This document shows positions 2,680 to 17,721 of a DNA stretch of 64,000 nucleotides, one piece after another. Where the stretch lies: IMG/VR virus record IMGVR_UViG_3300045988_175656; one strand, 5' to 3'. Within the stretch, counting starts at the first letter, position 1. Each line of letters begins with the position of its first letter. The stretch is from a virus. The translations under genes were made by a program, and so were the position numbers. The notes under the pieces are model-generated. The model saw only the letters and a list, made by a program, of their open reading frames with translations, searched no databases and was not told the DNA's origin.

Positions 2680-2799
2680 ACAGTATTAGCTCAGTTGGTT
2701 AGAGCATCAGCCCATAATAGAAATTTTTCAGTATTTGAAAAAACAGCAATATAATCTTAAACACGCAGAGGGTCATTGGTTCGAGTCCAATATACTGTT
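2680..2799 (+). tRNA. tRNA-shaped gene (probably CAU class) interrupted by the conserved hairpin/AGCAA module
   Basis: Acceptor acagtat/atactgt, D-arm gctc-agttggtta-gagc, T-arm attgg-ttcgagt-ccaat. Anticodon stem tcagc/gcaga encloses 53 nt beginning ccataat. The insert carries tttttca-gtatt-tgaaaaa followed by cagcaatataa (2724-2754). Confidence 0.6.
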
Positions 2800-2815
2800 C
2801 TAAAAAATAAAAATT

Positions 2816-3130
2816 ATGGTAAAAGATAAAGTATCATTTTATGAAATGATGAAAACCTTAGATGAAGGTGGATATGCGTTTTTAGCAAATGGGTGTATTT
2901 TGTTTAAACAAATACCTGCTGAGATTATGCCTGATACAATTCCTTTATTGAAGTCAGTACCAGATTTAGTTAAACAAAGAATGCTATCTTTAATTGAAAA
3001 AGATTCAGCTAAAAGTGCTAAGTATGAAAACCAATATATAAAAATGAATCAACAACTAAGAATGACTTATTATATATTTACAGGAGATGATGTAAATAGT
3101 AATGATTGGACTGTTGTTGCTAAAGATTAA
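2816..3130 (+). CDS. hypothetical protein
   Basis: ORF track only. Confidence 0.6.
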   Translation: MVKDKVSFYEMMKTLDEGGYAFLANGCILFKQIPAEIMPDTIPLLKSVPDLVKQRMLSLIEKDSAKSAKYENQYIKMNQQLRMTYYIFTGDDVNSNDWTVVAKD

Positions 3131-3134
3131 TGTT

Positions 3135-3581
3135 ATGGGAATATCAAGAAAACAAATAAAAAAAGCTATTCACAGATTAAGAGTAGATGGTAAAACACCA
3201 CATGATGTAATAGATTTTATTAATAAAAAACTTTGCACAAATAAGGTGGAATTTGAAGAAATACAAAATTGTAGTGAAAATAAAAAACTTTTACCTACAA
3301 GTACCATTTTATCAGATGTTTCAAATTTAAAAGGTATTATGAATGGTGTTACTTTTAATACAGGAAATGGACTTCTTATTAAAAGAACATACAATACGTT
3401 GTGTAATAATTTTAAAAGAATAACTAAGAAACAGTTTCCATTATCATATGAAGAAACTAATGAAGTGATTCAAGCTGTGAAAGATGGAAACAAACTTCAT
3501 GCTGTGAAATTGATAAAAATAAATTCAGGTCTTGGGTTGAGAGAGTCCAAAAATATTTTAGATGCAATGTTTTTTATATAA
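3135..3581 (+). CDS. protein with ribosomal L7/L12 C-terminal-domain-like tail
   Basis: ORF 3102-3581 trimmed to the ATG after the upstream stop. C-terminal AVKLIKINSGLGLRESKNILD resembles the L7/L12 CTD signature VIKxVRxxTGLGLKEAKDLVE. Confidence 0.55.
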   Translation: MGISRKQIKKAIHRLRVDGKTPHDVIDFINKKLCTNKVEFEEIQNCSENKKLLPTSTILSDVSNLKGIMNGVTFNTGNGLLIKRTYNTLCNNFKRITKKQFPLSYEETNEVIQAVKDGNKLHAVKLIKINSGLGLRESKNILDAMFFI

Positions 3582-3592
3582 GTCATTATAAT

Positions 3593-3802
3593 ATGGGAAA
3601 ACAAAAAATAAAACAAGGAATGGTTGTTGTTCTCGATACTGATATTTTTAGTGAAGAATGCGTTATATTATTATCAAGAGTAGGTAATAAGATTAAATCT
3701 TTCTATTTAAGAGAATATGAAATTATTGAAATTGATAAAGATGAAATGTTAGAAAATATTAAAAAAGGTAAATGGTTACTTAGAGTGCCTGATGAACTTT
3801 AA
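3593..3802 (+). CDS. hypothetical protein
   Basis: ORF track only. Confidence 0.55.
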   Translation: MGKQKIKQGMVVVLDTDIFSEECVILLSRVGNKIKSFYLREYEIIEIDKDEMLENIKKGKWLLRVPDEL

Positions 3803-4400
3803 CAATAATAAAATGAAGGGAAGTACTAATACTAAGCAGTTTAAAAATTTTCAGATTAGATGGGCTGAAAAATTAGGGTATGAAGATAATCCATACCTTA
3901 TAAGGTGGACATTTATATTTTTTGGTTATTCAATGAGAATACATCATTGGATTAAATCAGATGATGATAGATATTTTCATGACCATTCAGCTAATTTGCT
4001 TAGTATTGTATTGAAAGGGCATTATTGGAATGTAAAACCAATTGATACTAATAAAAATCCTTCTGATATGGTTAAAGTAATGGTTGATTCATATGTTAGT
4101 GGCTATATACCTGATAACCCTGATGAAGATTATGTTGAAATTGAAAAAGAAAATACAAAGTATTATTATGTAGAAGGTATTTTCAATTCTTTTTGGAATT
4201 TCATTAATATGAGAAAATCTATTTGGTTTTCAAAAGCTGAAGATAAACATTTTCTACGAATACCTGAAGGCGGTGCTTGGACATTGATGTTTGAAGGCAG
4301 ACCAAAACATAAATGGGGATTTTATGTTAATGGTCATAAATGGAGACCACTAAGATATTTTCATAAGTTTGGAATAAGACAAGATAAAAATTATCAATAA
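3792..4400 (+). CDS. hypothetical protein
   Basis: ORF track; its stop overlaps the coaE start (ATAATG). Confidence 0.6.
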   Translation: MNFNNNKMKGSTNTKQFKNFQIRWAEKLGYEDNPYLIRWTFIFFGYSMRIHHWIKSDDDRYFHDHSANLLSIVLKGHYWNVKPIDTNKNPSDMVKVMVDSYVSGYIPDNPDEDYVEIEKENTKYYYVEGIFNSFWNFINMRKSIWFSKAEDKHFLRIPEGGAWTLMFEGRPKHKWGFYVNGHKWRPLRYFHKFGIRQDKNYQ

Positions 4401-4984
4401 TGATATTAGGTATAACAGGTTATATTGGAAGTGGAAAAAGTTATATTTCCAACCTTTTTAGAAAAAATAACATTCCTGTATATGATACAGATAGTAAAGC
4501 AAAAGAAATTTTGAATACTAATCATCAACTTAAACAGGAATTAATTGATTTACTTGGCAATTCTATTTATAAAGATGGTGAATTAAATAAAAAACAATTA
4601 GCATTTTATTTGTTTAGTGACCAAGGTTATACTGATAAGATAAATGCAACTATTCATCCTTATGTAACAGAAGATTTTAAAAAGTGGAGTAAAAAAGAAC
4701 TTGTAACACATAAGATAGTTGCAGTTGAATCAGCTATACTTATTGATAGTGAGTTAGTTAATTGTGTTGATAAAATTGTTTTTGTTGAAGCACCTGTTGA
4801 ATTATGTATTGAAAGAGCCACAAAAAGGGATAACACAAATAAAATTGATATTATTAATAGAATTAATAAACAACCATCGCATTCTGATATAGTTAGATTT
4901 TCTAATTATGTTATATGTAATGATGGAAAAAAAGACAATGATATTGAAATGCAAGTAAAAAATATAATTGATAACATTTTTTAA
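4400..4984 (+). CDS. coaE: dephospho-CoA kinase
   Basis: N-terminal P-loop ILGITGYIGSGKS with the typical CoaE layout (IPVYDTDSKAKEIL; length 194 aa). Confidence 0.85.
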   Translation: MILGITGYIGSGKSYISNLFRKNNIPVYDTDSKAKEILNTNHQLKQELIDLLGNSIYKDGELNKKQLAFYLFSDQGYTDKINATIHPYVTEDFKKWSKKELVTHKIVAVESAILIDSELVNCVDKIVFVEAPVELCIERATKRDNTNKIDIINRINKQPSHSDIVRFSNYVICNDGKKDNDIEMQVKNIIDNIF

Positions 4985-5010
4985 TATTAAAAATTTGTTA
5001 GTTTAAAAAA

Positions 5011-5030
5011 TAAGTTGTATATTTGCAAAG
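5011..5030 (+). promoter_or_regulatory. Bacteroidota-type promoter driving a small structured RNA
   Basis: taagttgtatatttgcaaag consensus copy. Confidence 0.65.
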
Positions 5031-5032
5031 TC

Positions 5033-5170
5033 AAAAATTAATAATAGTCTTAGAACGATATATAAAATGACATAATTTGTTAGTTAGCGAATCTTTAACG
5101 AAACATAGTTGTAGAGTTTCAAACAAATTATTTGGGTGGAGAATCGGGATTCCTAATATTATTAATTTTA
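5033..5170 (+). ncRNA. structured small RNA candidate (unknown class)
   Basis: No ORF. A 13-bp closing helix (5034-5046 aaaattaataata with 5157-5169 tattattaatttt) encloses a nested 10-bp helix (5072-5081 ataatttgtt with 5122-5131 aacaaattat). It lies between two consensus promoters. Confidence 0.5.
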
Positions 5171-5210
5171 AAACATTTTTTAATAATAAATTTTTGGTTT
5201 ATTAAAAAAT

Positions 5211-5229
5211 AAGTTGTATATTTGCAAAG
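5211..5229 (+). promoter_or_regulatory. Bacteroidota-type promoter
   Basis: aagttgtatatttgcaaag, 10 nt upstream of the tRNA-shaped gene at 5239. Confidence 0.65.
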
Positions 5230-5238
5230 TAAAAAGAA

Positions 5239-5435
5239 CAATGGTTAGCTTAATTTGGTAAAGCGTTTCCCAATGATATAATTTCTTGCGCAATTGGAAT
5301 TATGTCATAACGACATGGAAAAGAATGGGTGTTGAAAAAAGAAGGATTTAGTAGAGTTTATTAGAGGTGCGCACCTCTAATAAAGGAAACTTGATTTGGA
5401 ATGAAGTAAAAAAGGTTCGAGTCCCCCACCATTGA
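5239..5435 (+). tRNA. tRNA-shaped gene with a ~110-nt insertion in the anticodon region and a weak T-stem
   Basis: Perfect acceptor caatggt/accattg, D-arm gctt-aatttggta-aagc and T-loop ggttcgagtcc. The stem tttcc (5266-5270)/ggaaa (5385-5389) encloses 114 nt, including the palindromic hairpin tagaggtgcgcacctcta. The T-stem has only 2 clear pairs. Confidence 0.4.
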
Positions 5436-5462
5436 CGATGTTTAATTATAAAATTATATTTC

Positions 5463-5762
5463 ATGAGAATTAAAGAAAAGAAAGTTGGGCAACACTTTCA
5501 ACATAGAAAAAGGATATTAGATACTGTTGCAGTACAACATGATAAAGTAGTTGGAACTGGATGGCATTGTGGGGTTGAAAATGGAAAATGTATGAATTGC
5601 TATTTTAATAATCATCCACCTTACAAATTTGCTTATTCTTATGAAAGAGAAAAAGTTAAAGACTATAATAGTTGTGCATATAAACATAGATGCACAAAAG
5701 TATATAGAACAGATGGAAATAATGTAATTTTTAAATCCATTAAAAATTTAACAAATAATTAA
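5463..5762 (+). CDS. hypothetical Cys/His-rich protein
   Basis: ORF track; several C and H residues (CGVENGKCMNC, CAYKHRC). Confidence 0.5.
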   Translation: MRIKEKKVGQHFQHRKRILDTVAVQHDKVVGTGWHCGVENGKCMNCYFNNHPPYKFAYSYEREKVKDYNSCAYKHRCTKVYRTDGNNVIFKSIKNLTNN

Positions 5763-5789
5763 CATTAAAAATTTGCAAGTTTCAAAAAT

Positions 5790-5808
5790 AAGTCGTATAT
5801 TTGCAAAG
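5790..5808 (+). promoter_or_regulatory. Bacteroidota-type promoter driving the large ORF-free block
   Basis: aagtcgtatatttgcaaag consensus copy. Confidence 0.65.
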
Positions 5809-5809
5809 T

Positions 5810-6786
5810 AAAAAGAAAACAAAGCGTTCTTTGAGAGAATTAAAACGAAATTTTATTAGTTTTTTATTAAAAATGGAAACATTTGGAAATGATAAACTAT
5901 TTAAAATATACAGTTAGCCCTCATAACTGTAAGGATAACGCAGTAATGTAATAAAGCAAACATGTGACAGTGTTTGCGATGCTTAATAAGCATTCCATAG
6001 AAGGGCAATATTGAGTATCATAACAAATGGAGTAAGGACGGGCAGAAATGAAAGTTTGTTATGACAAGGGGGATAAATCCTCTTTGTTGATACAGAAATG
6101 TAAATAAGAAAGTATTGGATAATGGTGCAATTCTTAACCGAGAAACGTGCTATTATAAATCATGTGGCAATTTAGACTTCGTAGCTCCCCCAAAGAGCGA
6201 TTAACGAGTGGTGTCGAATAGTAGAAATACAAAGTCTTTGTTAGAATCAAAAACTAACAGTCAAGTGGTAGTACAAAACATCTCAATTCGGTTAGATGTG
6301 TACAGATTGGTGTTTAAGTGGATTGTACTCAAAAGGTACAAATGCTTTGGGTCGCACCACATCAATCAGTTTTTAGATTAATAAAGGATTATTAGGAATC
6401 AAATTTATGCAGCAAAAGTGTGCGACACTTGTAGGTTAAAATGACCTTATTCCTCTGCAATATGAGGACAATATGAGTACCGCAAGGAAAATATTGAGAA
6501 AGTAAAAGTAATGATTTATCTAAGAGGGGTCGCCTTCTGAAGCCGAAAGCAGTTAGTCAAGAAATGAAATCTATGATACCTATGAGTAAGTGTTTAGTAG
6601 TTTTTCGCAAAACTATTGGTCATGCTATCTACTTAGCAGTAATGTTAAGTGTGAACATTCAGTTCCAACGCTGAAGTAATGATAGTATTAATGGTCATGT
6701 TCTCAGCCATACTTTTAACTCAAAGTGGGGGTCAATGCAGATGATTTTCTGTTGGAATGGTTCAATTCCATTTAAAAGTACTTTAA
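5810..6786 (+). ncRNA. large structured ncRNA candidate (~970 nt; class unknown, GOLLD/ROOL-like context)
   Basis: No ORF of 60 aa or more in any frame between 5762 and 7033. It sits behind its own consensus promoter, is visibly more G/C-rich than the flanks, and has many local helices (e.g. gcaaaca...tgtttgc at ~5957-5978 and tggaat-ggttca-attcca near 6754-6771). A small stem element and tRNA-Leu follow directly. Confidence 0.5.
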
Positions 6787-6850
6787 AGGAAACGTAGCAA
6801 ATATTTTAACTATCGAATTATTAATTTGAACAAAGTAAAAAATGTTTCCT
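6787..6850 (+). repeat. AGGAAAC...GTTTCCT stem element, copy 1 (small RNA or processing element)
   Basis: The 7-bp terminal stem aggaaac/gtttcct encloses gtagcaaatattttaac...aaaaaat. Copies also at 12574, 18556 and 18966. Confidence 0.6.
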
Positions 6851-6858
6851 GTTAAAAT

Positions 6859-6945
6859 GGCTCTGTGGCGAAATTGGTAGTACGCATCAGACTTAAAATC
6901 TGAGGGGCAGAAATGCCCGTGTGGGTTCGACTCCCATCAGAGCTA
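6859..6945 (+). tRNA. tRNA-Leu(UAA), type II
   Basis: Acceptor ggctctg/cagagct (G1-U72), anticodon stem tcaga/tctga, loop cttaaaa, long variable arm, T-arm gtggg-ttcgact-cccat. Confidence 0.9.
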
Positions 6946-7032
6946 CAAAAAAAAAATAAAAAAGTTTTTTAAAAAATTGAATTTTTCAATTTATAAGTTA
7001 TATTTATATTAAAAAGTAAAAAAATTAACATT

Positions 7033-7215
7033 ATGGCAACACTTAGTCAAACATATAATCAAATATCGAATTCAACATTTAAATGTTGGAACGGGTTTGT
7101 TATGCACAATGAACAAGTGAGACCTAATGGTATTGCGTTTTATGATAATAAACATAACAGAAAAAGCGTTCGATTACGACTGAAGGATGATATAGTACAA
7201 GAAATAGACTATTAG
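7033..7215 (+). CDS. hypothetical protein
   Basis: ORF track only; followed by a terminator. Confidence 0.45.
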   Translation: MATLSQTYNQISNSTFKCWNGFVMHNEQVRPNGIAFYDNKHNRKSVRLRLKDDIVQEIDY

Positions 7216-7246
7216 AGTTTAAAATACATAACTCAACATATATCCC

Positions 7247-7294
7247 AAAGCTGTAAGAGAACGATAAAAAGTTTGAATACAGCTTTTTTATTTT
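7247..7294 (+). terminator. rho-independent terminator
   Basis: Stem aaagctgta/tacagcttt followed by a T-run. Confidence 0.55.
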
Positions 7295-7308
7295 ATGTAT
7301 ATTTGAAT
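7294..7308 (+). promoter_or_regulatory. Bacteroidota-type promoter
   Basis: tatgtatatttgaat contains TAtaTTTG; precedes folA. Confidence 0.5.
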
Positions 7309-7329
7309 AAAAATTAAGAAATAAGATAT

Positions 7330-8028
7330 ATGACAGTTAATTTGATTGTTGCAATTAGTGAGAATAATGCAATTGGTAAAAATGGCGATTTGTGTTTTCA
7401 TATTAAAGATGATTTAAGAAGATTCAAAGAACTTACAATAGGCAAACCAGTAATAATGGGATATAATACATATAAATCATTACCAAATGGTGCTTTACCA
7501 AAAAGAAAAAATATTGTTTTATGTGATAATGAAACAACAGTGTTGATTAAAGAAATGGTAACTTTGTTACCTTCATTAGAAGAAGCTATACAATATTGCG
7601 ATGATAACTGTTATGATGATATTTTTATAATTGGTGGTGGAATGCTCTACAAATATGCAATTGAACATGATTTAGTGGATATTTTGTATATTACAAAAAT
7701 ACATGAAATTGTTGAAGATGCAGATACATTTTTTCCAAATATTGATTATAATAAATGGGTAGAAAAAACAAAAGAAGATAAAGAAACTGAAGATGGTATC
7801 AAATATAGTTTTGTTAAATATAAAAGAAATAAAGCAAAATTTATTTTAAATCCTGATTCAATTCATGTTGACAAAATACATAAGGCTATTGAAAAGAAGA
7901 AAGAAAAATTTGGAGAAAGATATTGCCCATGTGTAACAAAATTAGCCCACTGTGAGGACACAATTTGTCCTTGCAAAGAATATAGGACTAATGGGGGAAA
8001 ATGTCACTGTGAGCTTTATATTGAGTGA
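7330..8028 (+). CDS. folA: dihydrofolate reductase fused to a ferredoxin-thioredoxin-reductase catalytic-chain-like Cys domain
   Basis: The N-terminal ~160 aa is DHFR-like (LIVAISENNAIGKNGDL, RFKELT, GYNTYKSLP, IIGGGMLY). The C-terminus has the CPC-x11-CPC-x9-CHC pattern (RYCPCVTKLAHCEDTICPCKEYRTNGGKCHCELY). Confidence 0.85.
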   Translation: MTVNLIVAISENNAIGKNGDLCFHIKDDLRRFKELTIGKPVIMGYNTYKSLPNGALPKRKNIVLCDNETTVLIKEMVTLLPSLEEAIQYCDDNCYDDIFIIGGGMLYKYAIEHDLVDILYITKIHEIVEDADTFFPNIDYNKWVEKTKEDKETEDGIKYSFVKYKRNKAKFILNPDSIHVDKIHKAIEKKKEKFGERYCPCVTKLAHCEDTICPCKEYRTNGGKCHCELYIE

Positions 8029-8039
8029 TAGACATATTT

Positions 8040-8113
8040 TGGGATGAAGCTTAAATGGTATAAGCTACTGCCTGTTAAGCAGAAGATAGTAGGTTCGAGT
8101 CCTATCATCCCAG
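8040..8113 (+). tRNA. tRNA-Asn(GUU)
   Basis: Acceptor tgggatg/catccca, D gctt/aagc, anticodon loop ctgttaa, T-arm gtagg-ttcgagt-cctat. Confidence 0.9.
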
Positions 8114-8126
8114 CAAAATTAAATAT

Positions 8127-8240
8127 GGTGAGATTGAAATGTTGGTTAAATTTTTTCAGTATTGGAAAATTAGCAAATATTTAGAAATTCAGTTTAACAG
8201 TAAATTAAATATAACGTTGGTTCGATTCCAGCTCTCACCG
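8127..8240 (+). tRNA. tRNA-shaped gene carrying the conserved hairpin/TAGCAA module (paralog of 12452-12566)
   Basis: Acceptor ggtgaga/tctcacc and T-arm gttgg-ttcgatt-ccagc. The interior ttttttcagtattggaaaattagcaaatattt... (module 8152-8180) replaces a normal anticodon arm. Confidence 0.55.
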
Positions 8241-8282
8241 CAAAACGTTTTTTAACTTTGAAAAGTTGCATATGTTATTTAA

Positions 8283-8298
8283 ATGTTGTATATTTGCA
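8283..8298 (+). promoter_or_regulatory. Bacteroidota-type promoter
   Basis: atgttgtatatttgca; precedes the lipoprotein gene. Confidence 0.6.
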
Positions 8299-8338
8299 TT
8301 ATAAAAGTATTTATATAATATATAAATTTTAGAAAATA

Positions 8339-9325: not shown

Positions 9326-9418
9326 AAAAGAAAAAAAAAATATGATTATAAAACGAAAACATATAAAACAGGTATAATCACTACATACACCTAACGGGCA
9401 TGGAGTGATTTAATAAAT

Positions 9419-10292: not shown

Positions 10293-10478
10293 ATGAAACC
10301 TTATGGAGTTAAACGTAAAGACCAAGGCTGTTGTCCAGGTCATGATAAATTCCCATATGAATCATATGGAAGTCGAGTATCAATGAAATTGAAAAGGAGA
10401 ACTGACCAATTAGCACATAGAAGAACTAGAAGTTGGGAAAGACAAGAAATTTTTAAGGAATTAAATGATATTTTTTAA
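10293..10478 (+). CDS. hypothetical basic protein
   Basis: ORF 10287-10478 trimmed to its first ATG. Confidence 0.4.
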   Translation: MKPYGVKRKDQGCCPGHDKFPYESYGSRVSMKLKRRTDQLAHRRTRSWERQEIFKELNDIF

Positions 10479-10479
10479 T

Positions 10480-10641
10480 ATGGCGAGTATTAATAAGAAA
10501 AAGAAAGCAAGAAATTCATATTGTCATGGTTCTTTAAAAGAGAAAGACATGAAAATGAAACGAGTATTATTTTTTAATTCGTGTGTTAGAAAAAATTTAA
10601 AAAACGATTTAAGAACAATAGATACTGATGAAGGAAGTTAA
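10480..10641 (+). CDS. hypothetical small basic protein (53 aa)
   Basis: Hand-translated ORF MASINKKKKARNSYCHGSLKEK..., below the ORF-track cutoff; packed between neighbours. Confidence 0.3.
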   Translation: MASINKKKKARNSYCHGSLKEKDMKMKRVLFFNSCVRKNLKNDLRTIDTDEGS

Positions 10642-11065: not shown

Positions 11066-11105
11066 TAACAATTTTTAAGATTAAAAATTTGGCAGATATG
11101 AAAAT

Positions 11106-11124
11106 AAGTCGTATATTTGCAAAG
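11106..11124 (+). promoter_or_regulatory. Bacteroidota-type promoter in front of the split tRNA(CAU)
   Basis: aagtcgtatatttgcaaag consensus copy. Confidence 0.65.
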
Positions 11125-11183
11125 TAAAAAATATAAAAATTGCGAGGGAATGAAACGGATATATAAATCATGCAAGGCTCATA

Positions 11184-11930: not shown

Positions 11931-11931
11931 A
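11299..11931 (+). CDS. HNH endonuclease with N-terminal HTH-like region, encoded inside the tRNA intervening sequence
   Basis: C-terminal CCICGYDKHVEVAHIKPVSD...NLIGLCPNHHWEYD is an HNH motif with a zinc-ribbon-like Cys pair. Confidence 0.8.
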   Translation: MKKDDLIKYIIDEGLSYREIGKIYNVSDSYIRKIAQKLGIILPKRRKISKNETFNKNITLLDKVSDDDFVEIISKSNSWMEIINNIGYKNIGSKVKKNISDRCEKLNLNLNFSKLTLIGCITKGELFSNRKNWQSARSSIQKMARNIFFKHNKKPKCCICGYDKHVEVAHIKPVSDFTDETLIKEINSIDNLIGLCPNHHWEYDNGILKI

Positions 11932-11972
11932 CCTTGTTATAGTAAGTTCGACTCTTACACTCGCAACATAAT

Positions 11973-12046
11973 TGGGGGTTAGGTCAGTGGTTTAGACCGC
12001 CACTTTTACACAGTGGATGTCATTGGTTCGATTCCAATATCCCCAA
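11973..12046 (+). tRNA. tRNA-Val(UAC)
   Basis: Acceptor tgggggt/atcccca, D ggtc/gacc, anticodon stem ccact/agtgg, loop tttacac, T-arm attgg-ttcgatt-ccaat. Confidence 0.9.
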
Positions 12047-12163
12047 CACAGAAAGGTGGTTTGATATAACCTCTAAGACATATTAATTAAGTTTTAAGTT
12101 ATATCTTACACCTATGAAATTTAAAACATTTTTTAACAAAAAAGATTTTGTAGTTTGAAAATA

Positions 12164-12182
12164 ATTACTTATCTTTGCAAAG
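12164..12182 (+). promoter_or_regulatory. Bacteroidota-type promoter
   Basis: attacttatctttgcaaag contains TAtcTTTG; followed by an ORF-free stretch of ~180 nt and then tRNAs. Confidence 0.5.
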
Positions 12183-12366
12183 TGTTTTAAAAACAAATAG
12201 TTCTTTGACATGTTGGAAACCAAAAAATATAATTTTTAAAGACTAAAACAGGAGTTTATAAATTTGCGGAGTATAGATAAAACACATGGAAACATGGAGA
12301 TTTTTGAGACAATGCGCTGTATTTAGTCATAAATTAATACTATGTGTTAATGGTATTAATTTATAT

Positions 12367-12438
12367 TTCGATTTAGCTCAATGGCAGAGCACCTTGCTCA
12401 TATCGAGGTGGTTGATGGTTCGAATCCATCAGTCGAAA
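12367..12438 (+). tRNA. tRNA(CAU) (Met/fMet/Ile2 class)
   Basis: Acceptor ttcgatt/agtcgaa, D gctc/gagc, anticodon stem ccttg/cgagg, loop ctcatat, T-arm gatgg-ttcgaat-ccatc. Confidence 0.85.
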
Positions 12439-12451
12439 CAAATTATAAAAT

Positions 12452-12566
12452 AGAGGGGTTGAAATATTGGTCAAAATTTTTTCAGTATTGAAAAATTAGC
12501 AAATATTTAGAAATTCAGTTTAACAGTAAATTAAATATAATGTTGGTTCGATTCCAACCCCCTCTA
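12452..12566 (+). tRNA. tRNA-shaped gene carrying the conserved hairpin/TAGCAA module (paralog of 8127-8240)
   Basis: Acceptor agagggg/cccctct and T-arm gttgg-ttcgatt-ccaac. The interior is nearly identical to 8134-8232, including the module tttttcagtattgaaaaattagcaaatattt (12477-12506). Confidence 0.55.
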
Positions 12567-12573
12567 CAAATTA

Positions 12574-12637
12574 AGGAAACGTAGCAAATATTTTAACTAT
12601 CAAACTTTTAATTTGACGCAGTAAAAAAATGTTTCCT
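12574..12637 (+). repeat. AGGAAAC...GTTTCCT stem element, copy 2
   Basis: aggaaacgtagcaaatattttaactatc...aaaaaaatgtttcct. Sits 9 nt upstream of tRNA-Arg. Confidence 0.6.
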
Positions 12638-12646
12638 GTTTTTTAT

Positions 12647-12719
<73 letters not shown>

Positions 12720-12782
12720 CTCAAAAGTAGTTGTTTGTGAGTTACTCTACGTTTATGATAAATTAAAATGTGGCTTTCAATT

Positions 12783-12857
12783 CGGGGCGTTCCACAGATG
12801 GTTATATGGGCTTGATTTGGAGTCAAGTGTTCGCACGTTCGAATCGTGTCACCCCGA
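12783..12857 (+). tRNA. tRNA-Pro(UGG), one acceptor mismatch
   Basis: Acceptor cggggcg/caccccg, anticodon stem cttga/tcaag, loop tttggag, T-arm gcacg-ttcgaat-cgtgt. Confidence 0.8.
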
Positions 12858-12862
12858 CAAAT

Positions 12863-12935
12863 CTAGGTATGGTGGAGTTGGCAACACGCTACATTTGGGA
12901 TGTAGAGACCGCAAGTTCGAACCTTGCTATCTAGA
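12863..12935 (+). tRNA. tRNA-Pro(UGG)
   Basis: Acceptor ctaggta/tatctag, anticodon stem ctaca/tgtag, loop tttggga (G37), T-arm gcaag-ttcgaac-cttgc. Confidence 0.85.
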
Positions 12936-12972
12936 CAATTAACAAAAGTTTTAATTAAAAAAGGTAAAAATA

Positions 12973-13545
12973 ATGAAGAAATTTATGTTGTTAATTTGTT
13001 TATGTTTATCTTGTATTACTTTGAATGCACAAAAATGGTATTCATCTGTTTCGACAGGATGTGATACATATACAAATTTATACAAAGATTTAAAGTTTGG
13101 GAAAACTTTAGCACCAACCGCAGCGATTGCAGTTGGAAGAGACCACAATCCTTATCTTGGTACAAGATTGGAAGTTAGAGTAGGCAATGCATTATTTTCT
13201 GATGGCGAGAATATTCGAATGAATACACCATTTTTAATGTCATTTGCTGATATGACATGTAATCTTACAAATGTAGTTTGTGGATTAAATAATCGGATTT
13301 ATGATGTAATCATATTTGGTGGTGTTGGTGAGGTTTATAACTTCAAAAACAGTACTTATGATATGAAAAGTTTAAATTGTTTTGCTTTGAGGTATGGTAT
13401 TAGTTGTGATGTATATGTTTACAATAATGATAAACTTACATTATTTGTTGAACCTACTTTTAATGTTAACAATTATCTGATTGATAAAAAGTTTACTTCA
13501 GATTATATCCTTAATTTATCAATTGGTATATTAGTGAAATTATAA
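12973..13545 (+). CDS. outer-membrane beta-barrel protein (OmpA-N/porin-like), signal peptide
   Basis: Signal MKKFMLLICLCLSCITLNAQ with alternating hydrophobic beta-strand pattern. The terminal region IGILVKL is aromatic/hydrophobic. Confidence 0.55.
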   Translation: MKKFMLLICLCLSCITLNAQKWYSSVSTGCDTYTNLYKDLKFGKTLAPTAAIAVGRDHNPYLGTRLEVRVGNALFSDGENIRMNTPFLMSFADMTCNLTNVVCGLNNRIYDVIIFGGVGEVYNFKNSTYDMKSLNCFALRYGISCDVYVYNNDKLTLFVEPTFNVNNYLIDKKFTSDYILNLSIGILVKL

Positions 13546-13705
13546 TGAGAAATATGATTCAAGGCGTAAAAACCTATGGGAACGGCTTCTCGGTTTAAGT
13601 GGCATTGGGTTCGAATCCCCTTGGGAGTTAGGTCGGCACAAGCTCGGAAGGTATATCTATCTTAAACTGTTTCATATATAAAATTATTATAACAATACAA
13701 CTATC

Positions 13706-13914
13706 AGCGATAGAGGGGGACGGTGATTTAAGTTTTGATATGTAAAAATTAGCTACTTTTATATATTTCCTACTTTTAATTGTAGGCAAAACAAGCATTG
13801 TTTTTAGAAAACAGATGTGGCACGTGACATGTTAAATTGAGTTGTAACAATGTTAAATCTAAACTCGCCACTCGCTTAGGGTGGAGAAAACAGGTTCGAC
13901 TCCTGTTATCGCAA
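13706..13914 (+). tRNA. tRNA-shaped locus with very large interior (low confidence)
   Basis: T-arm acagg-ttcgact-cctgt. 6-bp acceptor gcgata/tatcgc with a mismatched terminal pair. About 130 extra nt, and a candidate anticodon-like hairpin ccact-cgcttag-ggtgg. Confidence 0.35.
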
Positions 13915-13921
13915 CAAATAT

Positions 13922-14063
13922 GGTGTAAATAACATTCATTTTTATGTAAATTCTATTTAAGTGTGCATAGAATAGAAACCTTATATAAATGATGAAAGGG
14001 TTTGATATGGAAGAGTAATTAACTTCAATTTAAGTATCGGTGGTTCGAATCCATCTTACATCA
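13922..14063 (+). tRNA. tRNA-shaped locus with ~65-nt extra interior
   Basis: Acceptor ggtgtaa/ttacatc and T-arm ggtgg-ttcgaat-ccatc. Internal hairpins ttctat...atagaa and aaacc...gggttt. No canonical anticodon loop. Confidence 0.4.
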
Positions 14064-14074
14064 CGAAATTAAAT

Positions 14075-14147
14075 GGGGTTCAAGCTAACTTAGTAGAAGC
14101 GTGGGTCTGAAAAACCCAAGGAGTTGGAGCGTAACCAACGTTCCCCA
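14075..14147 (+). tRNA. tRNA-Phe(GAA) with atypical T-loop and two acceptor mismatches
   Basis: Anticodon stem tgggt/accca, loop ctgaaaa, T-arm gttgg-agcgtaa-ccaac, acceptor ggggttc/gttcccc. Confidence 0.7.
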
Positions 14148-14161
14148 CAAAAATATTAAAT

Positions 14162-14650
14162 ATGAATATAAGAAATGTAGTTGGATATGATAATTATATT
14201 GTCTCAGATAATGGTGAAGTTTTTAATAAAAGGAATATAAATAAGCCATTAAAAACTAGAATAAATAAACATGGTTATAAATATTTAAATTTATCAAAAA
14301 ATGGTATAGTTAAAAGTAAATTGATACATAGAATAGTTGCTGAAGCTTTTTTAAACTATCAAGATGGTGATGTTGTAAATCATAAAGATGGAAATAAATT
14401 AAATAATAATATTGATAATTTAGAATTTTGTACTCAAAAGGATAATGTGAAACATGCTTTTGATAATGGTTTAATGCATCCTATTAATGGTGAAGAATGT
14501 CCTTGGTCTAAATTAACTGATGAAGAAGTGTTGAAAATTAGAAATGAGTACATTCCTTTTATATGTTCTTATAATATGTTAGCTAAAAAATATAATGTAT
14601 CTAAATCTGAAATTATACAAATAGTGAATAACAAAATAAGAAAACTTTAA
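14162..14650 (+). CDS. HNH homing endonuclease (HNH_3 type), free-standing between tRNAs
   Basis: Motif VNHKDGNKLNNNIDNLEFCTQKDN; paralog of 9511-9999. Confidence 0.8.
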   Translation: MNIRNVVGYDNYIVSDNGEVFNKRNINKPLKTRINKHGYKYLNLSKNGIVKSKLIHRIVAEAFLNYQDGDVVNHKDGNKLNNNIDNLEFCTQKDNVKHAFDNGLMHPINGEECPWSKLTDEEVLKIRNEYIPFICSYNMLAKKYNVSKSEIIQIVNNKIRKL

Positions 14651-14659
14651 TTTATAAAT

Positions 14660-14733
14660 GGCTGTGTGGCGCAGTTGGTTAGCGCAGGAATCTTATACAT
14701 TCAAGGTCAGGGGTTCAAGTCCCTTCACAGCTA
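14660..14733 (+). tRNA. tRNA-Ile(UAU)
   Basis: Acceptor ggctgtg/cacagct, D gcgc/gcgc-like, anticodon loop cttatac, T-arm agggg-ttcaagt-ccctt. Confidence 0.8.
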
Positions 14734-14822
14734 CAATAATAATGCATTTTTGAATTAATCATTATACTTTTTCACTTGATATACATCAAAAAATATGTTT
14801 TAAAACATATTTTTACCTTATT

Positions 14823-15014
14823 ATGGATATTTATAAGGGTAATAAGATAAAAATAAGTTTAATAAAAATGTTTAAAAAGATGATTAAGAAGTTAAAAAAA
14901 GCTATCGAATGGTATTGTGATAAATGTGCAACAACTAACATTTATGTACCAACAGGTATTATACCTTATAAAATCGTTGAAGATGAAAATAATAAAGTTG
15001 AAAATGAAAAATGA
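14823..15014 (+). CDS. hypothetical small protein (start uncertain)
   Basis: ORF track; CDKC pair; followed by a terminator. Confidence 0.4.
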   Translation: MDIYKGNKIKISLIKMFKKMIKKLKKAIEWYCDKCATTNIYVPTGIIPYKIVEDENNKVENEK

Positions 15015-15084
15015 TAGTTTTATGAAAAGGTTCAAGAATTTGACTATTGAATGTTTAGAAATAGTTGGAAGAAGTATATTATTA

Positions 15085-15123
15085 GGAAATTGGTATTATT
15101 AAGTTACTCAATTTCCTTTTTTT
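15085..15123 (+). terminator. rho-independent terminator
   Basis: Stem ggaaattg/caatttcc followed by tttttttt. Confidence 0.6.
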
Positions 15124-15132
15124 ATTATATAT

Positions 15133-15204
15133 GTTCGGTTCGAATAACGGTTAGTTCGCATCCCTTTCACGGATGAAATACGGGTTCGATTCCCGTACCG
15201 AATG
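15133..15204 (+). tRNA. tRNA-Glu(UUC)
   Basis: Acceptor gttcggt/accgaat, anticodon stem catcc/ggatg, loop ctttcac, T-arm acggg-ttcgatt-cccgt. Confidence 0.9.
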
Positions 15205-15238
15205 CTACAAGGGAACTGTAAGCAATATAATTAACTTT

Positions 15239-15310
15239 AGATTTGTAGTTTAGTGGTAAAATTTCAGGCTCATTACCTGAAGGTCAATGGTTCGAATCCA
15301 TTCAAACCCA
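15239..15310 (+). tRNA. tRNA(CAU)-like with two acceptor mismatches
   Basis: Anticodon stem tcagg/cctga, loop ctcatta, T-arm aatgg-ttcgaat-ccatt. The 3' half is identical to the tRNA at 15471. Acceptor agatttg/caaaccc pairs at only 5 of 7 positions. Confidence 0.6.
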
Positions 15311-15332
15311 AGTGAAGATGTTCTCTGTATAT

Positions 15333-15404
15333 GTACTGTGAACCAAGCGGTTAAGGTGGTGGTCTGCAAAACCTCATGGACAGGTTCGACTCCTGTACAG
15401 TACT
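15333..15404 (+). tRNA. tRNA-Cys(GCA)
   Basis: Perfect acceptor gtactgt/acagtac, anticodon loop ctgcaaa, T-arm acagg-ttcgact-cctgt. Confidence 0.85.
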
Positions 15405-15446
15405 CAAAAAAAAAAATAATGATTTTTATTTGGTAATTATGAATAA

Positions 15447-15465
15447 AAGTTGTATATTTGCAAAG
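15447..15465 (+). promoter_or_regulatory. Bacteroidota-type promoter
   Basis: aagttgtatatttgcaaag, 6 nt upstream of the tRNA at 15471. Confidence 0.65.
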
Positions 15466-15470
15466 TAAAT

Positions 15471-15542
15471 TGCGAGGTGTAGCAGTGGTAGCTAGTCAGG
15501 CTCATAACCTGAAGGTCAATGGTTCGAATCCATTCTTCGCAA
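15471..15542 (+). tRNA. tRNA(CAU) (Met/fMet/Ile2 class)
   Basis: Acceptor tgcgagg/cttcgca, D tagc/gcta, anticodon stem tcagg/cctga, loop ctcataa, T-arm aatgg-ttcgaat-ccatt. Confidence 0.9.
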
Positions 15543-15548
15543 CTTAGT

Positions 15549-15632
15549 CATGTGGGTCTTAACCTGAAATGGTAGTAAGGGGCAGACACTTAATCTGCTT
15601 GACTTAGTGAAGTTCGAATCTTCACCATATGA
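15549..15632 (+). tRNA. type II tRNA-shaped gene with non-canonical anticodon loop (cacttaa); identity unresolved
   Basis: Acceptor catgtgg/ccatatg, D ctta/taag with a large loop, stem gcaga/tctgc, extra arm, T-arm tgaag-ttcgaat-cttca. Followed by an encoded a-cca. Confidence 0.55.
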
Positions 15633-15699
15633 CCAATTATTTTATTAATTCAGATGGATGTTGTTGATTCAAGTTCCACACTATTCACAACTTTTTAAT

Positions 15700-15773
15700 G
15701 GGGGGTTAGTTCAGTTGGCTAGAACGTCTGCTTTGCACGCAGAAGGTCGTGGGTTCGAGTCCCACACTCTCCA
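15700..15773 (+). tRNA. tRNA-Ala(UGC)
   Basis: Acceptor ggggggt/actctcc with G3-U70, anticodon stem tctgc/gcaga, loop tttgcac, T-arm gtggg-ttcgagt-cccac. Confidence 0.9.
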
Positions 15774-15784
15774 CATTATTGTAT

Positions 15785-15869
15785 GTTCGGTTCGACTAGT
15801 GGCTTAGGTCGCTACCCTTTCACGGTAGTACATTGAAAAATGTCAGGGGTTCGAATCCCCTACCGAATA
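15785..15869 (+). tRNA. tRNA-Glu(UUC) paralog with an extra hairpin in the variable region
   Basis: Same acceptor gttcggt/accgaat and loop ctttcac as the tRNA at 15133. The variable region is expanded to tacattgaaaaatgtc (stem acatt/aatgt). Confidence 0.7.
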
Positions 15870-15879
15870 CAAAAAATAA

Positions 15880-16053
15880 ATGAATATTATGAATATTGGC
15901 GATATAGTAGTTTTAAAAAGTGGTGGACCTAATATGACTATTAGTGAAATAACACTTACAGAAATAATGTGTGTATGGTATGACTGTGATAGTCATAGAT
16001 TTTGTTATGATACTTTTAAAAAAGATGTTTTAAATAAAATTAAAGAAAATTAA
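15880..16053 (+). CDS. DUF2158/YodC-like small protein (57 aa)
   Basis: Hand-translated MNIMNIGDIVVLKSGGPNMTISEI..., carrying the GDxVxLKSGGPxMT signature. Confidence 0.55.
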   Translation: MNIMNIGDIVVLKSGGPNMTISEITLTEIMCVWYDCDSHRFCYDTFKKDVLNKIKEN

Positions 16054-16198
16054 CTCTCCTTATATATTTTGATGGGCTTGTTGACTTGGATAGTCAAAGA
16101 ATGAAGCAAGGGTTCATGGAGAATTTAAAACTATCCATTCTCGTGATGAACAACTTAGAAAGGCATTTCATGGTGTAGTTATCAGAAACACCAAATTT

Positions 16199-16272
16199 GC
16201 TGAAGTAGCACAATTGGTAGTTGCACCGCACTTGTAATGCGGATGTTGTGGGTTCGAGTCCCACCTTCAGCT
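16199..16272 (+). tRNA. tRNA-Thr(UGU)
   Basis: Acceptor gctgaag/cttcagc, anticodon stem ccgca/tgcgg, loop cttgtaa, T-arm gtggg-ttcgagt-cccac. Confidence 0.9.
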
Positions 16273-16278
16273 CAATAA

Positions 16279-16357
16279 CACTGTTAATCCAGAGATGGTA
16301 TCAAAGGTGGTTTTCATGTGTGTACAACATGAATGGGTTCGAATCCTATTACAGTGA
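16279..16357 (+). pseudogene. degenerate tRNA-like element
   Basis: Acceptor cactgtt/tacagtg (6 of 7 pairs), hairpin catgt-gtgtaca-acatg, T-arm atggg-ttcgaat-cctat. The D-arm and variable region do not fit a cloverleaf. Confidence 0.35.
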
Positions 16358-16825
16358 CACGGTTGCCTATGTTTGGATGCATACGAACATAGAACGTAGC
16401 TTAGTGAACGGTTCTAGTTTTTATGAAAATTAAAAACAACCGCACCCGTCACTCCAAATCGTTAGGTTGGCACTACCCTTTGTGAAGTAAAAGAAGGGAT
16501 ATTTTTTAAAAAGAAATTAGATGTATCTCAATGGTTATTATTAGTTGATGAATAAGTTGCAGTGGGCTAATTTCAAAGCATTCCAAAATTAGTTAAGATT
16601 TATATGTTGTATTTTGAAGTAAATTTTATTGATAGTTAACAATTAATAGGTTTAACATTAAATATGGTATATAATAGTTATCTAAGAGTAGCAATAAGGT
16701 TTTTCTTGTGAGATTGAAGAATTGTATAGAATGTGAGCGAATTCATTGTGTGAAAGTCACATACCCTTACAGTAGGAGTCTGTATAGATTAGTTTTAATC
16801 AGTCTGATTTCTTTTTAAAATAAAT

Positions 16826-16898
16826 GCCCTGTTAGTTCAGCGAACAGAACACTAAACTACGGATTTAGGGGTCGGGGGTTTGAATCCCTCACAGGGTA
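16826..16898 (+). tRNA. tRNA-Arg(ACG)
   Basis: Acceptor gccctgt/acagggt, D gttc/gaac, anticodon stem ctaaa/tttag, loop ctacgga, T-arm ggggg-tttgaat-ccctc. Confidence 0.9.
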
Positions 16899-16909
16899 CA
16901 AACATAAAT

Positions 16910-17022
16910 GGGGAAGTAGCTCAATTGGTAGAGCAAATGTTAAAAAAATGTTTTTAGTATTAAAAATGTAGCAATTAAATGAGGAAATCATTGTGTCATT
17001 GGTTCGATTCCAATCTTCCCCG
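16910..17022 (+). tRNA. tRNA-shaped gene carrying a covarying copy of the hairpin/TAGCAA module
   Basis: Acceptor ggggaag/cttcccc, D gctc-aattggta-gagc, T-arm attgg-ttcgatt-ccaat. The stem aatg/catt encloses ~49 nt with ttttta-gtat-taaaaa + tgtagcaattaaat (16951-16980). Confidence 0.55.
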
Positions 17023-17068
17023 CTTTTTAACAAAAAATTAACATTGAATATTTGGTATTATAAAAAAT

Positions 17069-17087
17069 AAGTTGTATATTTGCAATG
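17069..17087 (+). promoter_or_regulatory. Bacteroidota-type promoter
   Basis: aagttgtatatttgcaatg consensus copy. Confidence 0.65.
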
Positions 17088-17106
17088 TGAAAAAGATAAA
17101 AATAAT

Positions 17107-17179
17107 GGAGTATAGGTCAAACGGTTAAGATGTCTCCCTGTCACGGAGAACGGAGTGGGTTCGACTCCCATATATTCCG
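17107..17179 (+). tRNA. tRNA-Asp(GUC)
   Basis: Acceptor ggagtat/atattcc, anticodon stem tctcc/ggaga, loop ctgtcac, T-arm gtggg-ttcgact-cccat. Confidence 0.9.
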
Positions 17180-17185
17180 CAAAAT

Positions 17186-17399
17186 GGTGTGGTAGTTAAA
17201 TTGGAAACTTTCTTTTTATGTCAATAACATGTTTCATTCGCCAACAATTAGAATGATAGTGTGAGATATAAAATAGTTTATAAACTAAATGTTGAATAAG
17301 TATTCGAATTAAGTTCAGTAATAAGTTTATAAATGAAACGATAAGATAATGCTCCCAGATTTGAGGGAGTGATTGCAGGTTCGACTCCTGTTCATACCG
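17186..17399 (+). tRNA. tRNA-shaped locus with ~140-nt interior expansion
   Basis: Acceptor ggtgtgg/tcatacc (with G-U pairs), D-arm agtt/aact, T-arm gcagg-ttcgact-cctgt. The hairpin ctccc-agatttga-gggag lies just 5' of the variable region. Confidence 0.4.
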
Positions 17400-17406
17400 C
17401 AATAAT

Positions 17407-17478
17407 GGTCTATTCGTTCAACGGTTAGGATGTGGCACTGTCTATGCCAAGACGAGGGTTCGATTCCCTCATAGACCG
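17407..17478 (+). tRNA. tRNA-Asp(GUC), second copy
   Basis: Acceptor ggtctat/atagacc, anticodon stem tggca/tgcca, loop ctgtcta, T-arm gaggg-ttcgatt-ccctc. Confidence 0.85.
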
Positions 17479-17588
17479 CAAAAAAAGGAATGTGTTATCC
17501 TGAGTGAATTAGTATAGTGCACTATGTTAATCAATCAAACAACTCTTTGCTGTCAGTCGTTTATCAGACTAAAACCAGACTGTCATTT

Positions 17589-17721
17589 CACGGGTTCGTC
17601 TAATGGTTAGGACGCTTAAAATTTTTAAAACTTTTTTCAGTATTGAAAAAATAGCAAAATAACTAATTTAAAATTATGCAATTCTGAAGCAGAAATAGAG
17701 GTTCGAGTCCTCTACCCGTGT
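17589..17721 (+). tRNA. tRNA-shaped gene carrying the conserved hairpin/TAGCAA module
   Basis: Acceptor cacgggt/acccgtg, D gtc-taatggttag-gac, T-arm agagg-ttcgagt-cctct. The stem gctt/aagc encloses ~70 nt with ttttttcagtattgaaaaaatagcaaaataa (17632-17660). Confidence 0.5.

Follow-up and report, generated by a model that had tools for sequence, protein, structure and literature searches.

A hairpin–AGCAA module within tRNA-like genes of a putative Bacteroidota jumbo phage

The stretch of viral DNA analysed here (64,000 nucleotides, IMG/VR record IMGVR_UViG_3300045988_175656, hereafter the window) covers 64 kb of a genome that measures 220 kb or more. In and around a long array of ordinary tRNA genes it contains five tRNA-like genes (c1 to c5) that hold, in their middle part, the same short hairpin followed by AGCAA, which together we call the module. 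The first 22 kb of the window have 29% G+C, with C accounting for 11% of the + strand. Between 6.8 and 20.2 kb lie 31 standard tRNA genes, all on the + strand and covering all 20 amino acids, and HNH endonuclease genes and small open reading frames (ORFs) are scattered through this array. The motif ATATTTGCA is frequent on the + strand of the window and presumably corresponds to the TAnnTTTG box (-7) of Bacteroidota promoters. Close relatives, contigs of 220–400 kb, come from IMG/VR sample 3300045988, from ENA assemblies and from one human gut assembly, the last being the source of locus L085 (loci in other genomes carry an L and a number), which holds a variant of c1. Judged by these sequence features, the source is a jumbo phage of the gut Bacteroidota type and not a Lak phage. 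All comparative evidence given below is from this one shallow clade (at least 84% nucleotide identity).

The five elements stand on the + strand and measure 113–133 nt, at the positions and with the paired acceptor stems and T-arms that a preliminary description of this DNA had assigned to them: the acceptor stem is paired at 7/7 positions and the T-stem at 5/5, and the T-loop reads TTCGA(G/T)T in every one. The GG-containing D-arms credited to all five by the same description hold good for the GG motif, which is present in each D region; c2 and c3 lack a G+C D-stem and the strands of an anticodon stem. Element c1 (2680..2799) occupies the gap between two ORFs. Its acceptor is ACAGTAT/ATACTGT, its D-arm and T-arm are normal, and an insert of ~53 nt without any anticodon loop is enclosed by a 5-bp stem (TCAGC/GCAGA) in which one pair is mismatched. 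In c2 (8127..8240) the acceptor GGTGAGA/TCTCACC and the T-arm are accompanied by no anticodon arm. Its recent duplicate c3 (12452..12566), whose duplication took in the upstream spacer of c2, has the acceptor AGAGGGG/CCCCTCT. With the tRNA arms held fixed, both are predicted to fold into a single long arm tipped by the module, together with another hairpin (8185-8210 in c2). The tRNA-Phe-derived c4 (16910..17022) combines the acceptor GGGGAAG/CTTCCCC and a normal D-arm and T-arm with an insert after position 26-30, and c5 (17589..17721) has the acceptor CACGGGT/ACCCGTG, a D-arm of the Glu/Asp type, a T-arm and an insert of ~60 nt. The Rfam tRNA model (gathering threshold 29 bits) matches c1 with 46.9 bits and c4 with 52.3 bits, each with one large insertion, and does not report c2, c3 or c5 at E <= 1; weak matches are found for c3 (18.6 bits, to tRNA-Sec) and, over part of its length, for c5 (15.8 bits). 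The calls made by ARAGORN in intron mode were rejected, as they forced implausible anticodons (ATA, AGT, TTT) together with long variable arms.

The module is ~27 nt long and consists of a U-run/A-run hairpin of 6-7 bp followed by AGCAA. Each element has one copy, in agreement with the positions given in the preliminary description, and all five copies lie on the + strand, inside the tRNA-like frame and at the same relative place. They read TTTTTCA-GTATT-TGAAAAA, then AC and AGCAA, in c1 (2724..2749); TTTTTCA-GTAT-TGGAAAA with one U·G pair, then TT and AGCAA, in c2 (8152..8176); (TG)TTTTTA-GTAT-TAAAAA(TG), then T and AGCAA, in c4 (16949..16974); and TTTTTTCA-GTAT-TGAAAAAA, then T and AGCAA, in c5 (17633..17657), while the copy of c3 (12478..12502) was matched by both pattern and profile. 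An 18-mer pattern with up to 3 mismatches matches the window 9 times where 1.5 matches are expected, and none of 100 shuffled sequences reaches 9. An nhmmer profile of the module returns exactly 5 matches at E <= 7e-6 in the 64 kb (the next one at E ~0.7), and a covariance model scores the five copies at 47-57 bits, with the next match in the window at 21 bits. Since the profile and the covariance model were built from these same copies, which match by construction, the informative part is the gap to the next match.

Running the covariance model over the relatives, as the preliminary description had proposed, recovered orthologous copies and also a sixth module-bearing gene, c6. It is situated between c4 and tRNA-Asp at six loci from at least 3 lineages, is present neither in the window nor in L095, and its module (stem UUUUCA/UGGAAA) is identical between lineages that are ~16% apart. 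Over the 11 distinct module sequences all 77 cells of the hairpin alignment are standard pairs. The C-G to T-A double change that the preliminary description had noticed in the copy at 16951 is real, and the same lineage has undergone a second one, from U-A to G·U; independent U-A to U·G changes are seen in c2 of the window and in c4 of L113. The loop varies (GUAU, GUAUU in c1, GGAAG in c6), so that of the uniform hairpin described earlier the stem and AGCAA stand and GUAU is not essential: the conserved parts of the module are the stem and the 3' AGCAA. A G·U pair is tolerated only if the + strand RNA matters, which argues against a palindrome that acts purely at the DNA level; the argument is weak because independent events are few.

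Three other ideas about the module were discarded. A pairing partner for AGCAA (UGUUA/GUUAA, 5' of the hairpin) occurs in c2, c3 and c4 and is missing in c1 and c5, and is thus not universal. As a promoter or terminator, the reverse complement comes close to the TAnnTTTG box at a spacing unfit for a promoter of the sigma-70 type. Lastly, a presumed resemblance to CRISPR repeats (ATTGAAA) was dropped, the G of that motif being variable.

The preliminary description placed the insert always between the two strands of the anticodon stem, and this does not hold for c4, c5 and c6, where an insert of 42-60 nt follows the D-arm and precedes a weak remnant of the anticodon arm, i.e., an anticodon-type hairpin that stands 3' of the insert at the canonical distance from the T-arm. 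In relatives of the window, c4 runs from the D-arm through A26, a 42-nt cassette, the arm AAATG-ATGAAGT-CATTG and a 4-nt variable loop to the T-arm and the discriminator A73; its loop ATGAAGT provides U33, the anticodon GAA and G37, and going by its sequence the gene reads as a tRNA-Phe(GAA) with an insertion, the border of which is ambiguous (26/27 to 30/31) because AAATG is repeated. Likewise, in c6 the D-arm and C26 are followed by a cassette of 43 nt, the arm TAGCA-CUGUUAA-UGCCG, a variable loop of 4 nt and the T-arm, and the loop of the anticodon-type arm is of the tRNA-Asn type (GUU; GUC in L010). The residual arm of c4 in the window is AAATG-AGGAAAT-CATTG (16977..16993); here U33, G37 and A73 have changed and the remaining body is untouched. 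In c5 a weak arm (17676..17692, ATGCA-ATTCTGA-AGCAG, then a 4-nt variable loop) would hold the anticodon UCU in the window and UCC in relatives, an assignment that is tentative because only 3/5 stem pairs form. Measured as decoding arms, all of these fall short: only 3-4 stem pairs form in the residual arms of c4–c6, where the other stems are perfect (3 in c5, 4 in c6 and in c4 of the relatives), and c4 of the window has G33. A hand count on the alignments finds ~5/51 variable columns in these arms, which is the rate of the linkers. None of c1, c2 and c3 has an anticodon arm of 5 bp and 7 nt in which position 33 is U and position 37 a purine, and simple excision yields no canonical anticodon loop in 4/5 of the window copies, or in 3-4 of the six families overall.

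Orthologues of the elements vary at 5/229 columns of the tRNA body, 7/107 of the module and 19/149 of the linkers, so that the linkers evolve ~6 times faster than the body (p = 5e-5). The two comparisons with the greatest divergence give an identity of 95.8% between c1 and its counterpart in L085 (92.7% for the insert, 96.8% for the module) and of 92.9% between c4 and its counterpart in L113 (87.8% for the insert), against 75% at codon position 3 and 91-97% at positions 1-2 of the neighbouring genes. The duplicates c2 and c3 differ at 15/115 positions, 9 of which fall within the 15 nt of acceptor stem and discriminator, and four acceptor pairs (1, 3, 5 and 7) have been swapped by double, fully compensated changes. 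This goes beyond neutral decay and argues for selection of a different, still paired acceptor helix. Furthermore, a C follows the discriminator (C74) in 5/5 elements, in 5/5 other tRNA-like elements of the window (below) and in 30/31 standard tRNAs, a 3'-flank signature that points to genes matured as tRNAs. We regard these sequence comparisons as clear evidence that selection would act on the hairpin/AGCAA module and on the top half, whose acceptor stem, T-arm, elbow G's and C74 are all strongly conserved, and not on the anticodon. The scenario of decaying pseudogenes hit by a junk repeat, which the preliminary description had named as its possible refutation, is disfavoured by the same evidence (conservation, compensated swaps and C74).

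Turnover among close relatives is by whole genes, c3 and c6 coming and going: the window, L002 and L126 have c3, and at six other loci, which lack it, tRNA-Met is directly followed by the next repeat. The module was sought by exact-pattern scans of IMG/VR, the JGI/ENA metagenomes and a set of prokaryotic genomes (one for each species), along with BLAST searches of GenBank phages, and was recovered only at orthologous positions of the same phage clade, any other matches being due to chance. Specifically, the IMG/VR viral contigs gave the clade itself plus chance matches in coding DNA; the JGI/ENA metagenomes gave only orthologues among the 120 matches listed, and more distant carriers may exist there; 185,579 bacterial and archaeal genomes gave 56 chance matches, none of them in a tRNA; and among GenBank phages the weak matches to Lak-B are coding DNA with no tRNAs nearby. 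Distant relatives reached through the neighbouring cpYpsA protein have loci without tRNA arrays. Bodies of c4 and c5 without the insert were searched for and none were found. Two unrelated viral contigs, L149 (~10475-10499, - strand) and L151 (1934-), contain the tRNA 5' half of c4 (GGGGAAGTAGCTCAATTGGTAGAGC), which there precedes long, G+C-richer insertions, and these may be tRNA genes containing group I introns.

We tentatively prefer, as a reading that is quite possible, to see the elements as non-decoding, tRNA-derived RNAs that display the module; their transcription, processing, stability and any binding partner are what we infer. In the proposed course of events, tRNA-derived genes would have acquired a common AU-rich cassette (an A-run, the U-run/A-run hairpin, and AGCAA with an AU-rich tail) at the point where the D-arm meets the anticodon arm, whereupon the genes bearing it would no longer decode and the anticodon arms of c4–c6 would be vestiges. 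The elements could be co-transcribed with the tRNA array or with adjoining ORFs, RNase P and the 3' tRNA-processing enzymes would release the RNAs by way of the intact top half (acceptor, T-arm and elbow), and stable tRNA-like RNAs of ~115-135 nt would persist, with the hairpin module in place of the anticodon domain. Large phages have big tRNA arrays, and tRNAs are a main battleground on which phages and bacterial defences meet. The putative role would be that of a tRNA mimic that serves some protein with an affinity for tRNA tops as a decoy or as a binding platform, a role that would suit a phage with genes for an RNA ligase, an HD-polynucleotide kinase and a 3'-5' exoribonuclease; the copies between ORFs may alternatively serve as a processing mark. 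Of the two alternatives in the preliminary description, a new small tRNA intervening sequence or a family of tRNA-scaffolded RNAs, the latter fits better, because the top half and the hairpin are conserved while the acceptors change by compensated swaps, and because 4/5 copies have no excisable loop while the imperfect arms of c4–c6 vary like linkers. Its picture of an anticodon arm swapped for a protein-binding module needs amending, as the cassette was added 5' of a residual arm in at least 3 families, and the protein binding is likewise something that we infer. Moreover, Phe, Asn, Arg and Gly tRNAs are among the 31 standard tRNAs of the window, and the elements are redundant with standard tRNAs of the same anticodons in every lineage, which counts against a need for decoding or splicing.

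Rather unlikely, in our estimation, is the other possibility, a new short, protein-dependent tRNA intervening sequence in which the cassette (~42-60 nt) is excised and the halves are rejoined; here a phage or host endonuclease directed by the hairpin/AGCAA could make the cut, and HD-Pnk, RNA ligase and exoribonuclease could restore the tRNA. Removal of 42-43 nt does turn c4 of the relatives into a tRNA-Phe with U33, GAA, G37, A73 and a 4-nt variable loop, and c6 into a tRNA-Asn with the loop CUGUUAA and a 4-nt variable loop, and the Rfam tRNA model covers c1 and c4 with a single large insertion. Orthologues also differ at anticodon position 36 (UCU/UCC in c5, GUU/GUC in c6) much as the standard tRNAs of the clade switch anticodons, the window encodes end-healing and sealing enzymes, and the unexplained tRNA introns of megaphages provide a precedent. 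The same excision leaves c1, c2 and c3 with no possible canonical loop and c5 with a 3-bp stem, the residual arms vary at the linker rate, c4 of the window has lost U33 and A73 with its body intact, and every product would duplicate a standard tRNA. As for mechanism, the archaeal and eukaryal tRNA introns are similar in that they are inserted in the anticodon region, and archaeal ones can lie outside 37/38; a strict scan for their bulge-helix-bulge motif, in which a 4-bp helix stands between two 3-nt bulges, found 1-3 matches per element against 0.5-1.8 in shuffled sequences, at unrelated positions and with no tRNA-like product, and this candidate was rejected, in line with the failure to fold such a motif in the preliminary description. 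A Pfam scan of ~40 ORFs of the window showed neither an EndA/Sen splicing endonuclease nor any other candidate for an RNA endonuclease. Group I and II introns, already deemed too large by that description, were discarded as well, although bacterial group I introns in tRNA genes likewise lie in the anticodon region: the inserts measure 45-70 nt against a core of at least ~200 nt, no such core is present, and a search of the Rfam intron families gave nothing up to E = 10. A nested tRNA-like unit as in Lak phages is also missing.

Another candidate is a selfish mini-insertion resembling miniature inverted-repeat transposable elements (MITE) or repetitive extragenic palindromes (REP), which would have inactivated tRNA genes, leaving the elements as pseudogenes and the module as the core of a mobile DNA. 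The very AT-rich inserts and their fast-evolving linkers would suit it, as would the short flanking direct repeats (AAATG or AGCAAAT in c4, TTAAAATT in c5), the gain and loss of copies among close relatives, the other degenerate tRNA-like elements and the partly similar 'b' repeat (below) that abound in the region, the interspersed HNH and GIY-YIG endonuclease genes and the restriction of the module to one clade. The tail AGCAAT(T)ATAATCT is common to c1 and c6 despite unrelated tRNA bodies, which points to some mobility or recombination of the cassette. Nevertheless, bodies and module exceed codon positions 1-2 of the neighbouring genes in conservation, the four compensated swaps in the acceptor of c3 are not a product of decay, C74 is retained in every copy, and the hairpin never loses a pair, with G·U on the + strand only. 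The direct repeats (5-8 nt) are no longer than chance would provide (by our estimate ~1 expected per element), neither terminal inverted repeats nor a transposase were found in the window, and what is gained and lost is the whole tRNA-like gene, not the cassette alone; we consider such an insertion unlikely. Very improbable, finally, is a site at the DNA level, i.e., the near-palindrome TTTTTCA-n4-TGAAAAA with AGCAA being bound, cut or recombined by a phage protein. The stem is indeed also an inverted repeat in DNA, the change from C-G to T-A preserves its symmetry, homing-endonuclease genes lie within the array and copies have been gained and lost; against this, two independent A-to-G changes make U·G pairs in RNA and break the symmetry of the DNA, the loop varies in length and sequence (GTAT, GTATT, GGAAG), and all copies keep the orientation of the tRNA gene and the same place in the frame, with none elsewhere in the 64 kb.

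Several observations weigh against the proposal that the elements are non-decoding RNAs displaying the module. The canonical Phe and Asn loops are kept, at the right distance from the T-arm, in c4 of the relatives and in c6, and c5 and c6 have their substitutions at anticodon position 36, as genuine tRNAs of the clade do; both patterns would be equally compatible with RNAs whose insert is removed before they decode. Taken alone, the module is not significantly more conserved than the linkers (p = 0.14), and c5 evolves no more slowly than its environment (94.7% identity with L101 against 97% in the surroundings). The covariation rests on ~4-6 independent events in one shallow clade, and the AGCAA tail could be a relic of insertion instead of a functional site.

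A bolder form of the proposal, which we deem unlikely, is that of a natural 'tRNA scaffold', in which a jumbo-phage clade would keep a multigene family of tRNA chassis that all present the same hairpin–AGCAA aptamer instead of a functional anticodon domain. Such RNAs would be decoys or sponges for host defence enzymes directed at tRNAs, or else handles for the RNA-repair enzymes of the phage, and the compensated diversification of acceptor and discriminator would reflect an arms race. In the engineered 'tRNA scaffold' of Ponchon and Dardel, an RNA module placed in the anticodon arm is processed and stabilised like a tRNA; that construct is artificial, whereas the present arrangement is natural, multi-copy and has diversified acceptor stems. 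If the elements are decoys or scaffolds, they would add a class to the known non-coding RNAs of phages and be the natural equivalent of the engineered scaffold, and if they are spliced, they would define a new type of bacterial or phage intron. Either way, six paralogous tRNA frames with one common 27-nt module offer a compact and tractable case.

The tRNA cluster of phage T4 gives rise to the stable RNAs known as species 1 and 2 (RNA C and RNA D), which are ~120-140 nt long and, as they have been described, resemble the present elements in being encoded among tRNA genes and matured with them; we know of no inserted module common to the two. The transfer-messenger RNA (tmRNA) has tRNA-like ends and an internal hairpin too, and in 5/5 window copies a GCA codon is followed by a stop within 2-3 codons. 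It was rejected, given that tmRNA measures ~350 nt against 113-133 nt here, G3·U70 is missing, ARAGORN and Rfam make no call and the frame after GCA shifts between orthologues (with the length of an A-run). The Y RNAs of the YrlA type are non-decoding and contain a tRNA-like domain (Chen et al. 2014, PMC4201824). They resemble our elements, as proposed here, in copying the elbow of acceptor, T-arm and D-arm, in replacing the anticodon stem by a protein-binding helix and in lying near RNA-repair genes. Conversely, a Y RNA ends in the Ro-binding stem and its acceptor-like stem is closed by a loop, whereas the acceptor stem holds both ends of the present elements; the Y RNA models of Rfam do not match them, and no TROVE-domain protein was found, only a DUF2828/DUF7788/VWA protein. 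Y RNAs, the T4 stable RNAs and the tRNA scaffold would be the nearest functional analogies, and the elements could be assigned to none of them.

The literature searches found no paper on this module; the preliminary description, which knew of no precedent, went too far as regards short inserts, which have been described with a different architecture. Devoto et al. (2019, PMC6784885) reported 'enigmatic introns', conserved and variably present or absent, in tRNA genes of Lak megaphages, which infect Prevotella, and according to a 2026 survey (PMC13037316) 'intronic sequences' are common in the tRNAs of alternatively coded jumbo phages. Similar to the present inserts, these are short (79-114 nt), AT-rich and unclassified, and they lie in tRNA genes of very large phages of the gut whose hosts are Bacteroidota. 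They vary little from sample to sample, are present or absent in close relatives, and have neither an Rfam match nor a known splicing mechanism. The Lak inserts sit at 37/38 and leave the anticodon intact, whereas the present ones lie between 26/27 and 31/32 or take the place of the arm. A Lak insert consists of a 5' hairpin, an A-rich linker (ATTAAATTAAA) and a nested tRNA-like unit with its acceptor stem and T-arm, followed by CA (Table S6, PMC6784885); ours, by contrast, have no internal GGTTCRA/T-arm and share the U-run/A-run hairpin with AGCAA. When applied to the Lak-A1 tRNA region, the covariance model detected no module there. Inserts of this sort have been observed before without being explained, and the present ones form a variant set apart by the hairpin–AGCAA architecture and its position.

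Part of the module recurs in a ~65-nt repeat that we call 'b', which is always located between tRNA genes and has the form AGGAAACG-TAGCAAATAwTTTAA...AAAAAATGTTTCCT with a 9-bp closing stem (AGGAAACG/ATGTTTCCT). Its copies lie on the + strand at 6787..6850, 12574..12637 (directly 3' of c3, with a weak Rfam tRNA match of 13.9 bits that lacks the T-arm and has a CUUUUAA loop), 18966..19026 and, with the 3' half missing, 18556-~18580. The repeat has GTAGCAAATAtTT in common with the module tail of c2 and c3 (the first 20 nt of 'b' being shared), and AGCAA occurs in it as GTAGCAAATA; AGCAA may be either a recognition site or a relic of the origin of the elements. Beyond the clade the 'b' motif GGAAACGTAGCAAATA was met only in coding DNA, the repeat itself being confined to this clade. 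Just upstream of the first copy and of a tRNA-Leu, positions 6305-6709 (+) match the GOLLD RNA (RF02032) over the full model (1-416/416) with 93 bits and E = 1.8e-23 (gathering score 150), and probably represent a divergent GOLLD-like large RNA.

Five further tRNA-like elements, over-long or otherwise odd (80-215 nt), are found on the + strand (2216-2323, 5239-5436, 13922-14063, 16279-16358 and 17186-17400), with a paired acceptor stem, a T-arm, C74 and other interiors without the module. The first of these and its counterpart in L085 have the same acceptor and T-arm and completely different interiors; 2216-2323, c1 and 5239-5436 fill inter-ORF gaps, one each. The RNA ligase gene is immediately followed by a mini tRNA-like element of ~65 nt (52190-52256, +), not far from the DUF2828/DUF7788/VWA protein (48199-49851). 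This element combines a 9-bp stem of the acceptor type with a single hairpin and a T-arm that contains GGGTTCAACTCCC; it has no Rfam match and might be a Y-RNA-like partner. The ligase (50618-52177) has an N-terminal OB domain like that of Naegleria Rnl (Rnl5-like). Together with an HD phosphoesterase fused to a P-loop of the polynucleotide-kinase type (HD-Pnk, 59603-60829), a methyltransferase (61502-62308) and an Rv2179c-like 3'-5' exoribonuclease (63082-63645), it forms what is, by sequence, an RNA end-healing and sealing gene set.

The standard tRNAs of the clade show peculiarities of their own. The Arg(TCT) tRNA of the window (12647-12720) corresponds to a CTA tRNA, of the amber suppressor type, in L010 (3869-3942). 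Comparison of window positions 14660-14734 and 15238-15311 with L010 and L095 showed Met(CAT) in both of these loci in place of Ile(TAT), and where the window has Met(CAT), relatives have either Lys(TTT) or Thr(TGT). Anticodons thus seem to switch rapidly, and one lineage may have recoded TAG. A second tRNA-Glu (15785-15870, +) carries an extra hairpin in its variable region (ACATT-GAAAA-ATGT), and the tRNA-Phe at 14075-14148 (+) has the aberrant T-loop AGCGTAA, not TTCGAAT, at a site where L003 and L045 hold a different, normal tRNA-Phe. Among the protein-coding genes, a dihydrofolate reductase fused to a C-terminal domain like ferredoxin-thioredoxin-reductase beta is encoded inside the tRNA array (7330-8028, +), and farther on (40220-43331 and 46663-47553, +) the window encodes DnaK (Hsp70), DnaJ and a factor of the sigma-70 family that has regions 2 and 4.

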